Positions 44,832-48,722 of a stretch of DNA of 64,000 bases are shown here, piece after piece. The notes under the pieces are model-generated. The model was not told where the DNA came from, ran no database searches, and saw only the letters and a list, made by a program, of their open reading frames with translations. Source of the DNA: an uncultured Candidatus Rokubacteria bacterium (GTDB lineage: Bacteria; Methylomirabilota; Methylomirabilia; Rokubacteriales; CSP1-6). Position 1 is the stretch's first letter, and each line of letters begins with the position of its first letter. A program made the position numbers and the translations under genes. The stretch lies in the NCBI GenBank assembly GCA_963747235.1, contig CAVVEU010000002.1, positions 1-64,000 of the forward strand. Reading direction: 5' to 3'.

Positions 44832-45892
44832 CAGATCAGGCCGACCTCGCTGCGATCGCCCAGCATGAAGTTGAAGGAGCGCGGCTTGGACGCGGTCCGG
44901 TAGATGGACACGTTGCGCCCGATGAGGCTCGACTCGATGCGGCCCCCCACGTCGGTCACGCTCGCGCCTTCCAGCAGGATCGAGTGCTCGACCTCGCTGG
45001 CCCGCAGCACCACGCGATCGCCGATCGACGTGAACGGCCCCACGTAGGCGCTCTCGATGACCGCGTCGCGGCCGATGATCGCCGGGCCCCGGACGGTGCT
45101 CTTGATGACGCGCGCGCCCGCCTCGATCACCACGCGGCCGACGATCTCGCTGTCCACCACGGTGCCGTCGGTGCGCGGCAGCAGGGTGTCGAGGATGATC
45201 CGGTTGGCCTCGAGCATGTCCTCGAGCTTGCCGGTGTCCTTCCACCAGCCCTCGATGACGTGCGGCCGCACCACGTAGCCCTGGTCGATCAGCCACTGGA
45301 TCGCGTCGGTGATCTCGAGCTCGCCGCGCGCCGAGGGCTTGATGGCCTTGACCGCCTTGAAGACCGTCGCGTCGAACATGTAGACGCCGACGAGCCCCAG
45401 GTTGGACGGCGGCTCCTTCGGCTTCTCCACCAGGCGCACCACCTGCCCGTCCTTGAGCACCGCGACGCCGAACTGGGTCGGGTCGGGCACGGCGGCGAGC
45501 AGGATCTGGCAATTCGGCTTCTCGTCGCGGAAGCGCGTCACCAGGGGCTCGAGCCGCTCGCGGATCAGGTTGTCGCCCAGGTACATGCAGAACGGCTCGG
45601 TGCCGAGGAACGGCTCCGAGACGAGCACGGCGTGGGCGAGACCGAGCGGCGCCTCTTGCTCGATATAGGTGACGGACACGCCGAACCGGCTGCCGTCGCC
45701 GACCGCGTCGCGGATCTCCTGCTTGGTGTCGCCGACCACGATGCCGATCTCGCTGATCCCCGACGCGGCCAGCGCCTCGATCCCGTAGAAGAGGATGGGC
45801 TTGTTGGCCACGGGGACGAGCTGCTTCGCCGAGGTGAAGGTGATCGGACGGAGCCGCGTGCCGCGGCCGCCGGAGAGGATTAAGCCTTTCAT
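44831..45892 (-). CDS. rfbA: Glucose-1-phosphate thymidylyltransferase (long form)
   Basis: GGRGTRLRPIT..KQLVPVANKP, LVEKP, SARGELEITD, WWKDTG. Confidence 0.93.
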   Translation of the reverse strand: MKGLILSGGRGTRLRPITFTSAKQLVPVANKPILFYGIEALAASGISEIGIVVGDTKQEIRDAVGDGSRFGVSVTYIEQEAPLGLAHAVLVSEPFLGTEPFCMYLGDNLIRERLEPLVTRFRDEKPNCQILLAAVPDPTQFGVAVLKDGQVVRLVEKPKEPPSNLGLVGVYMFDATVFKAVKAIKPSARGELEITDAIQWLIDQGYVVRPHVIEGWWKDTGKLEDMLEANRIILDTLLPRTDGTVVDSEIVGRVVIEAGARVIKSTVRGPAIIGRDAVIESAYVGPFTSIGDRVVLRASEVEHSILLEGASVTDVGGRIESSLIGRNVSIYRTASKPRSFNFMLGDRSEVGLI

Positions 45893-46021
45893 TTAGCGGC
45901 CAATTATAGCAGTCTTAGCCTGCCTCAAACAGCGAACCCTCCCGGGCTTGCCAGATCCGACCGGATTGGGTGGTATTATGAACCCACTGAAATTGCAGCA
46001 ACTTTCTTCCAGGAGCGGGCG

Positions 46022-47257
46022 ATGAAGACGTTGAAGGAGATGCTGGCGGACGCCCGGCAGGTGGTGCCCGAACAGGGGCCGGCCGAGGTGAAGAAGCGGA
46101 TCGACGCGGGAGAGCCGCTCGTCCTGATCGACGTGCGCGATCCCGACGAGTACCGCGACGGCTTCATCGAGCCCGCGACCAATATCAGCCGCGGCTTCCT
46201 CGAGTTCCGCATCGGCGGCGCGGCGGCGGATCCGACGACGCCCATCGTGCTGTACTGCCAGAGCGGCCTCCGCTCCATGCTCGCCGCCAAGGCCCTCCGG
46301 GATCTCGGCTACGAGAACGTGACCAACCTGCAGGGCGGCTTCCAGAAGTGGGCGCAGTCCGGCCTGCCGGTGGTCAAGGACCGCCCGATGAACGCCGACC
46401 AGATCCAGCGCTACAGCCGGCACTTCCTGCTGCCCCAGGTGGGCGAGAAGGGCCAGCGCAAGCTGCTGCGCTCGAAGGTGCTGCTGATCGGCGCGGGCGG
46501 GCTCGGCTCGCCGACCGCGCTGTACCTGGCCGCGGCGGGCGTCGGCACGATGGGCCTGATGGACGGCGACGTGGTGGACGTGTCGAACCTGCAGCGGCAG
46601 ATCCTCCACACCACCGCGAACGTGGGGCGGCCCAAGGTCGAGTCGGGCACCGAGATGATCCGGGCGCTGAACCCGGACGTCAACGTCATCCCGCTGCCGA
46701 CGCGCATCACCGTCGACAACGTGATGGACATCATCAAGGACTACGACCTGGTCATCGACGGGTCGGACAATTTTGATACGCGCTACTTGATGAACGACGC
46801 GTGCTATCTCGCGGGCAAGACCAACGTGCACGGCTCGATCTTCCAGTTCGAGGGCATGGCCACCGTGCTCGCCCCGAACCAGGGCCCGTGCTACCGCTGC
46901 CTCTACCCGACGCCGCCGCCCCCGGGGCTCGTCCCCAGCTGAAGCGAGGCCGGCGTCCTGGGCGTGCTCCCAGGAATCATCGGAGTGATCCAGGCCACCG
47001 AGGCCATCAAGGTGCTGCTCGGCATCGGCGAGCCCCTGATCGGCCGGCTCCTCACCTACGACGCGCTCGGCATGCGCTTCCGCGAGGTCAAGCTCCGCCG
47101 CGACCCCAAGTGCCCCCTCTGCGGCGAGCACCCGACCATCACGGACCTGTCGATCCACCGCAGCGGCGACGCGGCGGCCTGCGAGGTGAGCGACAACGGC
47201 CACGCGGCGCCGGCTTCCGCGCCTGCGGGCACGCCGGGCGCGAAGGCGGGCGGCTAG
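46022..47257 (+). CDS. moeB: Rhodanese-MoeB/ThiF (E1-like) fusion; probable selenoprotein with TGA 46940-46942 read as Sec307, 411 aa
   Basis: Rhodanese loop YCQSGLRS; RYSRH, GAGGLGS, SNLQRQ, CYRC, CPLC; PPPGLVPS-TGA-SEAGVLGVLPG continues in frame where homologues read PSC. Confidence 0.88.
46956..46975 (+). promoter_or_regulatory. Putative bacterial SECIS hairpin
   Basis: TCCTGGG-CGTGCT-CCCAGGA; loop starts 20 nt after the TGA and contains GU. Confidence 0.7.
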
Positions 47258-47327
47258 CTCGCTCGCGTCGCGGAACTCGCGCCGGTTGCTAGTCGCCGGC
47301 GCGGCGATGTCGGGTGGTGAAATGAGT

Positions 47328-47404
47328 TGGCGCGCCTGGAGGGATTCGAACCCCCGACCCTCGGCTTAGAAGGCCGATGCTCTATCCAACTGAGCTACAG
47401 GCGC
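47328..47404 (-). tRNA. tRNA-Arg(UCU)
   Basis: Full cloverleaf, anticodon loop CTTCTAA, GTTCGAATC, encoded CCA. Confidence 0.96.
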
Positions 47405-47771
47405 ACGCCGGTAGCTACGATACACCAGCTCGCTCCGCCCGGACGCTACGACGGCGAGCCGCGCGATGCGGGTGATCGAAGCGATCGTGACCAATGCGCC
47501 CCGCCGCGATGGAGATCAAGCACAACGCTATGCCTTCGATCATGGCCGCCCTCCTTGCGGGCGTGATTCGCACGGGGCATGCCGGGCCCGAACCGCTGAT
47601 AAACATTGCCCAGTGCTCTCCAGTGAGGACTCGGGGTGCCGGGCAAGCCCTGCCGACACGGACTATTGCTCCCTCGGTAACCCGCGGGGGCATAGGTGCC
47701 AAACGCCCGTAGGAAGACTGCCCCTGAGCGGCACGGCGTGAGGTGGATTGACACCGCGGAGTAGGCGAAGG

Positions 47772-47813
47772 TCGCCTTCGAAAGCCGATGCTCTATCCAG
47801 GAGCTACAGGCGT
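47772..47813 (-). pseudogene. Degenerate 5' half of a tRNA-Arg (UCG anticodon)
   Basis: ACGCCTGTAGCTCCTGGATAGAGCATCGGCTTTCGAAGGCGA aligns to the 5' 44 nt of the neighbouring tRNA; no T arm. Confidence 0.75.
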
Positions 47814-47918
47814 GGCAGGGACTTGTGCTGCACGGGCTCAATTGAGCGGCGCATATGCCATGCAAGTCCTGCGAGGATCGGCGCCCGGCCAAGCGTCTGG
47901 CATCCGGCTTGCCGTCAC

Positions 47919-48236
47919 ATGGACTCCATGTCGGTTCAGGTCGGCCGGTGGGGAGTGGGCATCGCGGCCGCGATCGGCGGCGGCGCGGCGTGGCTTCTCG
48001 AGTGGCCGCCCGCGGCGAGCGCGGCCTTCGGCGCGCTGCTGGTGCCACTTGTGGCCGTGGTCGCGGGCGCCATATTCTCGCAGCGCCAAGCGTCTCCCGT
48101 CGTGCAAGCGCCGCCGCGCGGTCTCTGCGAATGCGGCCATGTCATGAGCATGCACTGCGCGAGTGACGGCTCCGGCCCCTGCGCGGCCGCGGATTGCCAC
48201 TGCGCCGGACGTGACCGCGTCGCCTCCACGCAGTAA
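47919..48236 (+). CDS. Small two-TM protein with C-terminal Cys/His zinc-finger-like motif
   Basis: Two hydrophobic stretches then CECGHVMSMHC..GPCAAADCHC. Confidence 0.55.
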   Translation: MDSMSVQVGRWGVGIAAAIGGGAAWLLEWPPAASAAFGALLVPLVAVVAGAIFSQRQASPVVQAPPRGLCECGHVMSMHCASDGSGPCAAADCHCAGRDRVASTQ

Positions 48237-48645: not shown

Positions 48646-48722
48646 TGGTCGGGGTGAGAGGATTTGAACCTCCGACTCCCTGCTCCCAAAGCAGGTGCGC
48701 TACCGGGCTGCGCCACACCCCG
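48646..48722 (-). tRNA. tRNA-Pro(UGG)
   Basis: Cloverleaf, anticodon loop TTTGGGA, GTTCAAATC, CCA end. Confidence 0.96.

Follow-up and report, generated by a model that had tools for sequence, protein, structure and literature searches.

A rhodanese-MoeB fusion gene of Rokubacteria with a predicted selenocysteine at the E1-like crossover-loop cysteine position

Gene structure at the locus

The DNA analysed here, which we call the window, is a stretch of 64,000 nucleotides (nt) from an uncultured Candidatus Rokubacteria bacterium (positions 1 to 64,000 of contig CAVVEU010000002.1, assembly GCA_963747235.1). On its forward strand lies a gene for a rhodanese domain followed by a MoeB/ThiF-type adenylation domain, interrupted by a single in-frame TGA that we propose is read as selenocysteine (Sec, U) with the help of a nearby hairpin of the selenocysteine insertion sequence (SECIS) type. 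The gene comprises the following features.

46011-46015, + strand: AGGAG, a putative Shine-Dalgarno-like sequence 6 nt 5′ of the ATG, read from the sequence
46022-47257, + strand: coding sequence of the predicted rhodanese-MoeB selenoprotein, from ATG 46022 to TAG 47255-47257; 411 residues including U307 when translated with TGA as U
46079-46357, + strand: N-terminal rhodanese domain, residues 20-112 (PF00581, 74.8 bits)
46256-46258, + strand: TGC codon of the rhodanese catalytic-loop Cys79, in the motif CQSGLRS, located by sequence
46412-47116, + strand: ThiF/MoeB adenylation domain, residues 131-365 (PF00899, 281.5 bits), with one TGA inside
46940-46942, + strand: in-frame UGA predicted to be read as selenocysteine U307, at the E1-like crossover-loop Cys position (structure alignments and orthologues)
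46957-46974, + strand: conserved SECIS-type hairpin within the coding sequence, 14 nt 3′ of the UGA, with a 6-bp stem (CCUGGG/CCCAGG) and the loop CGUGCU (46963-46968)

In the program-made list of open reading frames (ORFs), the gene is given as a 306-residue ORF at 46022-46942, ending in ...PPPGLVPS and then TGA 46940-46942, with a 97-residue ORF left over at 46964-47257 from a GTG start. Past the TGA the frame goes on as SEAGVLGVLPGIIGVIQATEAIK..., via CPLC, to the TAG at 47255-47257. An earlier note on this DNA, made from its letters, had claimed both the continuation to CPLC and a 411-residue enzyme with UGA at the E1-type Cys, and each part of that description stands. When aligned to solved structures, the U307 column coincides with C187 of Escherichia coli MoeB, C184 of ThiF and the single crossover-loop Cys of CtUba4.

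In the adenylation domain the nucleotide loop reads GAGGLG, and the two zinc pairs of CxxC type are C290/C293 and C364/C367. With C substituted for U, the protein scores 535.2 bits (cut-off 449) against NF006444, the NCBIfam equivalog for the molybdopterin-synthase adenylyltransferase MoeB, with residues 4-375 matching positions 3-375 of the 387 in the profile. The score against NF005902 (MoeZ/MoeBR-type) is 398.7 bits, under the cut-off of 647, and the protein is therefore not a member of that family.

Conservation of the in-frame TGA

A six-frame search of 60 relatives returned full-length matches with one internal TGA, down to 65% identity. Loci were extracted for 53 relatives, with TGA at the aligned column in 45 (VPS-U-[S/N]EAGV) and TGC in 3; the remaining five are one locus frameshifted just upstream and four unscored fragments of distant paralogues. 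A separate contig scan covered 80 loci, whose records are metagenome-assembled genomes (MAGs) of Candidatus Rokubacteria, Rokuibacteriota or Methylomirabilota, and gave 77 with TGA, 2 with TGC and 1 frameshifted at the Sec column. The Cys/TGA pairing that the earlier note had proposed as a check is thus found at one and the same column in both sets. Deduplication left 106 unique genes of the Sec form and 4 of the Cys form. Two sister families also have a TGA at the same site, in five genomes at 57-66% identity, and C stands at the Sec column in 45 full-length database proteins.

At the level of the phylum, an orthologue at E ≤ 1e-120 was identified in 168 of 251 sampled genomes, with an in-frame TGA in all but 8 of the rows listed, the TGA column being confirmed only for those rows whose DNA was retrieved. 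These tallies include four unpublished genomes (G029, G067, G112 and G142), and no claim depends on them alone.

Such recurrence bears on the explanation that the TGA arose by error in sequencing or assembly, or through a recent mutation that turned a TGC or TGT codon into a stop and the gene into a pseudogene. Some relatives are indeed damaged nearby: a same-genus orthologue, L074/L139, is frameshifted a few codons ahead of the Sec site (...YPTPPAARPGPQLKRG...). The same TGA nevertheless occurs in 106 unique genes from independent assemblies, which refutes an error or a recent pseudogene as far as assemblies can and leaves this explanation with next to no probability. No copy other than L074/L139 is damaged in the sets of 53 and 80 loci, and its frameshift reflects an indel of the assembly or else marks a pseudogene. 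Twenty sequencing runs, all of them soil, sediment or bog metagenomes, contain the stretch or part of it (14 contain at least half of the sampled words and 6 are recorded as RNA); they provide no evidence on expression or on the base call.

The reading frame past the TGA evolves as coding sequence. Across the 106 unique orthologues, variability at the first, second and third codon positions is 0.078, 0.043 and 0.249 for residues 308-379, compared with 0.113, 0.075 and 0.282 upstream. Since variability past the TGA is concentrated at third positions, the downstream frame is translated, and the substitution pattern points to purifying selection on it. Cys79, Arg84, G157, G159, G160 and the four zinc-pair cysteines (C290, C293, C364 and C367) do not vary in any of the 106 Sec-form orthologues. 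Cys387 (window 47180-47182; AACE, in the variable C-terminal tail) is kept in 92 of the 106 and might, by analogy to the linker Cys305 of CtUba4, act as a resolving thiol.

These data also address the possibility that the TGA is a true stop, in which case the product would be a truncated rhodanese-adenylation protein of 306 residues, possibly accompanied by a separate C-terminal fragment from GTG 46964. Gene callers give exactly such products, 72 of the best 120 database proteins end in ...GLVPS at 306-307 residues, and the GTG-initiated ORF at 46964-47257 exists. A protein ending there, however, would be without the zinc pair C364/C367 and without the C-terminal, dimer-forming part, which aligns to MoeB and ThiF through residue 369. 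Moreover, the downstream frame is kept in 106 genes with coding-type variability, and Cys forms have the same frame uninterrupted. A plain stop explains neither why the stop is held at one codon across the order and a sister lineage nor the freeze of synonymous sites that accompanies it (described below). On this evidence we judge termination at the TGA to be very improbable, and the 72 truncations at the TGA indicate that the enzyme is systematically mis-called in the phylum.

TGA serves this group as an ordinary stop as well, since in several orthologues the reading frame closes with a TGA near codon 406-409. Genetic codes 4 and 25, in which TGA encodes Trp or Gly, were considered and rejected on the grounds of the Cys pairing, the single in-frame TGA and the orthologues that terminate with TGA.

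Directly after the UGA (46943-46945), the 24 sequences that have Ser there all use AGC and the others have AAC, so that an A always lies 3′ of the UGA; the Ser306 codon, by contrast, varies between AGC and TCC. The invariant A may reflect a context constraint on the base after the Sec codon.

Constraint on the hairpin downstream of the TGA

The earlier note had described a 7-bp hairpin with its loop 20 nt past the TGA, and had suggested that it resembles a SECIS element. In the window the hairpin is present in that form, as a seventh U-A pair lengthens it to 46956-46975 (TCCTGGG at 46956-46962, CCCAGGA at 46969-46975), and the TGA-to-loop spacing is 20 nt. A published model of the bacterial SECIS (bSECIS) specifies a loop of 3-9 nt with a G within its first two nt, a stem of 4-16 bp, a UGA-to-loop distance of 16-37 nt and a minimum free energy of -7.5 kcal/mol or lower (PMC13188914). 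Under a custom-written scanner that applies this model, the hairpin agrees with all four specifications, having an energy of -11.1 kcal/mol, a spacing of 20 and a 6-nt loop with G at position 2 followed by U.

Comparison of synonymous sites gives strong evidence. In the alignment of 106 genes, 148 columns have a conserved residue whose codons are at least three-fold degenerate, and only 6 of them use a single codon. Five of these six are the consecutive codons 312-316 (GTC CTG GGC GTG CTC), each written identically in all 106 unique Sec-form genes and together covering the hairpin from its 5′ arm through the loop to the first base of the 3′ arm. In 100,000 permutations, no run of five single-codon columns arose. 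The three Cys-form DNAs compared, by contrast, differ at the synonymous sites of codons 312-316, and in them the stem is broken.

The 3′ arm follows suit in part. For Pro317, CCA is used in 35 of 43 sequences and CCG in the other 8, with CCC and CCT never used; both of the codons used pair with the opposite U, and CCA is rare at other proline columns. For Gly318, 26 of the 43 sequences use GGA and 17 use GGC (39 and 38 of 77, respectively, in the 80-locus scan). The earlier note had argued that the CCA and GGA codons of the 3′ arm, atypical for this genome, indicate selection for the fold, an argument that holds for the CCA of Pro317 and fails for the GGA of Gly318. Because the Gly318 pair is not conserved, we take the conserved stem to be 6 bp (46957-46962/46969-46974).

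In the sister lineage (5 genomes, two families), the peptide AGVLGVLPG is unchanged, and it is written with other codons (GTG CTG GGG GTC YTR CCC GGC). These produce a different hairpin, with a 7-bp stem (UGCUGGG/CCCGGCA) and the loop GGUCUUA, whose loop start is again at +21. Cys paralogues in genomes of the sister families have nothing comparable.

Several observations weigh against a SECIS function and, with it, against selenocysteine. The bSECIS model is passed by 17% of 3,989 random positions in the same genome, and about 5% are equally stable. The 66-nt region folds like its shuffles (z +0.62, with 144 of 200 shuffles at least as stable), and thermodynamics was dropped as an argument because folding energy gave no signal relative to them. 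No Rfam SECIS family was found in 45500-48000 at E ≤ 10, where only tRNA and chance matches appeared. Within the order the stem is invariant, with one pair showing a one-sided change (U-A/U-G) and no two-sided covariation, and the stem of the sister lineage is a register shift rather than pair-by-pair covariation. Finally, selenium in the polypeptide is predicted from sequence. With bSECIS criteria as loose as this, the weight of the case rests on the synonymous-site freeze and on the alternative stem of the sister lineage. The hairpin alone is weak evidence and not beyond chance; the comparative signal is far beyond chance.

Selenocysteine machinery and decoding of the UGA

The genome to which the window belongs is a MAG of 42 contigs, 88% complete and 4.9% contaminated. 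The earlier note had implied that selenocysteine machinery should be encoded elsewhere in this genome, and selA, selB, selC and selD were all recovered there. The tRNA-Sec (selC), with a score of 69.3 bits (cut-off 47), has the anticodon TCA according to ARAGORN. Among the proteins, SelA scores 500 bits, SelB 365 bits (cut-off 242) and SelD 227.8 bits (cut-off 125). Both selA and selB directly adjoin the tRNA-Sec on the same contig.

G000:C14:40679-45481, one strand: cluster of selB, selA and tRNA-Sec, from family matches

The SelD matches lie in two adjoining pieces in different frames at G000:C27:46033-46945 and in three at G000:C8:303114-303868, the latter match beginning at profile position 32. 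The split matches suggest frameshifts or assembly indels in selD-like genes. About 2.2 kb past the tRNA-Sec, beside an SLT/LysM transglycosylase, is an 80-residue ThiS/Ub-Mut7C-like ORF (G000:C14:47693-47863); on examination, we saw nothing that ties this ORF to the rhodanese-MoeB gene.

The machinery has another predicted client in FdhA of the same genome, whose gene has one in-frame TGA and a similarly built hairpin (6-bp stem, 7-nt loop with G at position 2, spacing 17). This bears on the alternative that a near-cognate or suppressor tRNA (e.g. for Cys or Trp) inserts its amino acid at the UGA, with the hairpin serving as a general read-through or pausing signal. Such an account is compatible with the facts that sequence does not give the identity of the inserted residue, that the hairpin is without a curated RNA family match and that so many random positions pass the bSECIS criteria. 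It is at odds, however, with a full Sec system that is present and used by FdhA, with the pairing to Cys in homologues, which is the classical signature of Sec, and with a bSECIS spacing and G in the loop that are common to the FdhA element. If Cys were wanted, TGC would be one mutation away, and some lineages took it, as the tree below indicates. We regard decoding by a suppressor tRNA as unlikely, while giving it a little more room than termination at the TGA.

In all, gene structure, Sec/Cys pairing, constraint on the hairpin and the Sec machinery support the selenocysteine reading. We conclude that the gene at 46022-47257 (+) very probably encodes a single selenoprotein of 411 residues, comprising a rhodanese domain and a MoeB/ThiF-type adenylyltransferase, with its UGA decoded as Sec.

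Related enzymes and a proposed mechanism

Solved structures that match the adenylation domain include E. coli MoeB (1JW9) and ThiF (1ZUD/1ZFN). Residues 123-369 align to this fold at E of about 5e-57 to 8e-57, the two CxxC pairs match, and the loop cysteines C187 and C184 lie at the position of U307; the E. coli proteins differ in having Cys instead of Sec and in being without a rhodanese domain. MoeZ/MoeBR-type proteins (NF005902) are likewise MoeB-rhodanese fusions for sulfur-carrier thiocarboxylation, with the rhodanese at the opposite, C-terminal end. Uba4/MOCS3 also combines adenylation and rhodanese domains in one chain (E 3e-57) and has its crossover-loop Cys at U307. It differs in its reversed domain order, in having Cys where the window's protein is predicted to have Sec, and in its carriers, which here would be bacterial and of the ThiS/MoaD type; the protein described here is, moreover, known from sequence. 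By analogy, the protein would work like the Uba4/MOCS3 enzymes, and it is not classed with them, its domain order being different.

A mechanism can be proposed by homology to these systems. The tRNA-Sec and SelB, recruited by the hairpin at 46957-46974, would decode UGA 46940-46942 as selenocysteine. The adenylation domain would then adenylate the C-terminal glycine of the ThiS/MoaD-type sulfur carriers encoded in the genome. On the flexible crossover loop, Sec307 would take the place of the thioester Cys of Uba4 (ScC225/CtC202) and of the acyl-disulfide Cys of ThiF (C184), either attacking the acyl-adenylate to form a selenoester or else resolving an acyl-persulfide. The persulfide on Cys79 of the rhodanese domain would provide the sulfur of the carrier's thiocarboxylate. 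We infer these chemical steps by analogy. Compared with a thiolate, a selenolate at this position would be the better nucleophile and would also leave more readily.

In the accounts available for Uba4, the aligned Cys (ScC225/CtC202) and the adenylated carrier Urm1 become joined as a thioester, which the rhodanese persulfide then attacks (PMC6007339, PMC7527816), and C184 of ThiF is described as forming an acyl disulfide with ThiS (PMC12596934). Two further points of the unfavourable kind concern this chemistry. E. coli MoeB and ThiF are reported to operate without a thioester at the aligned Cys (PMC13139853), and for that reason the selenoester step is an analogy to Uba4 only. In addition, the rhodanese is N-terminal here (residues 20-112, with ThiF at residues 131-365) and C-terminal in Uba4.

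Genomic context, paralogues and carriers

No partner gene adjoins the rhodanese-MoeB gene in the window. Upstream, on the opposite strand, lies an ORF resembling a sugar nucleotidyltransferase, and two tRNA genes follow downstream.

47328-47404 of the window, - strand: tRNA-Arg (tct), directly downstream of the gene
48646-48722 of the window, - strand: tRNA-Pro (tgg), farther downstream

A match to PYLIS_2 at 47762-47858 is sub-threshold (22.6 bits against 36) and looks like chance.

Elsewhere in the genome there is one other ThiF-family gene, a Cys paralogue on contig C36, making two in all with the Sec form.

G000:C36:8531-9715 (L048 995-2179), + strand: Cys-form paralogue in the same MAG, 394 residues, about 80% identical, with TGC at the Sec column

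This paralogue could be a true one or could represent binned contamination. Directly before it are a GntR-like regulator and an ORF resembling thioredoxin (WCGPC), a context unlike that of the window's gene. Six ORFs of the ThiS/MoaD family are encoded in the genome, one of them MoaD-like and directly before MoaE, and ThiG is present.

The Sec form is common, and often alone, in related genomes. Among same-family genomes that are at least 90% complete, it is present in 20 of 24 and is the sole ThiF-family match above the Pfam cut-off in 15 of 24. In the neighbouring family it is present in 13 of 14, and a second, stop-free paralogue in 14 of 14. Given so few ThiF-family genes, with the Sec form often the sole one, the enzyme probably has several carriers as substrates, MoaD and ThiS at the least.

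Evolution of the Sec and Cys forms

To place the two forms relative to each other, a quick maximum-likelihood tree was built from 103 rows, namely 56 Sec forms and 47 Cys forms. The Sec rows were the window's gene, five outgroup rows from the sister lineage and 50 taken at random from the rest, other Sec forms being excluded. Rooted on the sister lineage, the tree has at least 4 Sec/Cys changes, of which well-supported branches force at least 3, and the Cys forms are nested inside the Sec radiation; this root depends on an outgroup that is itself Sec. A Cys clade of 38 rows (Shimodaira-Hasegawa-like approximate likelihood-ratio support, SH-aLRT, 98) includes the Cys paralogue of the window's own genome. 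Rows that a database displays with C may in truth be records bearing U, and the count of changes is to be read with this in mind.

Earlier reports and significance

The earlier note had allowed that Sec-containing MoeB (Sec-MoeB) might already be catalogued, which is the case. 'Molybdopterin biosynthesis MoeB' was introduced as a new selenoprotein family in 2005 from 11 Sargasso Sea sequences (Zhang, Fomenko & Gladyshev; PMC1088965), and the 2008 Global Ocean Sampling (GOS) survey lists 19 Sec and 2,262 Cys sequences for the MoeB family (PMC2398784). A study of Olavius symbionts names Sec-MoeB as a known family undetected there (PMC1976440), and the family recurs in catalogues of 2022 and 2026 (PMC9312934, PMC13188914). 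Where these texts treat the family, they leave the Sec position blank ('-' in the motif column) and give no domain architecture, rhodanese fusion or mechanism. A literature search for the selenoprotein 'molybdopterin biosynthesis MoeB' matched only papers of 2005 and 2007, a search on selenocysteine in Rokubacteria found no paper whose title or abstract was relevant, and a 2025 review of ThiF-like enzyme chemistry has no word starting with 'selen' (PMC12596934). According to a 2026 review citing Deng et al. 2026, a Methylomirabilota MAG is predicted to have 63 selenoprotein genes (PMC13188914), and the rhodanese-MoeB gene may be among them.

Like the published Sec-MoeB sequences, the gene described here is of the MoeB/ThiF family and has an in-frame TGA/Cys pair and a downstream bacterial SECIS-like hairpin. 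It is unlike them in coming from soil and groundwater Rokubacteria/Methylomirabilota rather than marine metagenomes, in its N-terminal rhodanese and in its order-wide fixation. By its TGA/Cys pair and hairpin it appears to be a member of the Sec-MoeB family. Relative to the print that we found, three points are new: Rokubacteriales and a sister lineage both have the Sec form fixed, with two SECIS solutions; many genomes have it as their sole E1; and the extent to which the gene is mis-annotated. Owing to truncated annotation, metabolic reconstructions may count MoeB/ThiF as broken.

Sec usually occupies catalytic positions in proteins, and its fixation at the crossover-loop Cys is therefore a natural pointer to the role of this residue in rhodanese-MoeB fusions. 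In many genomes the Sec form is the sole ThiF-family gene, and the genome of the window has MoaD-MoaE, ThiG and the molybdoenzyme FdhA, which would link the sulfur chemistry of the molybdenum cofactor and of thiamin to selenium supply in a widespread soil group. A tentative extension, which we hold to be possible rather than probable, is that the housekeeping and often only E1-like sulfur-carrier activator of Rokubacteriales may be an obligate selenoenzyme, acting through a selenoester or acyl-selenosulfide at the crossover loop. Sulfur insertion into the molybdenum cofactor and into thiazole would then depend on selenium and SelB, with Sec ancestral and Cys forms arising several times. If this is true, the natural Cys-to-Sec replacement would single out the crossover-loop residue as one that matters to the catalytic rate in bacterial fusions of rhodanese and MoeB, in contrast to E. 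coli MoeB.

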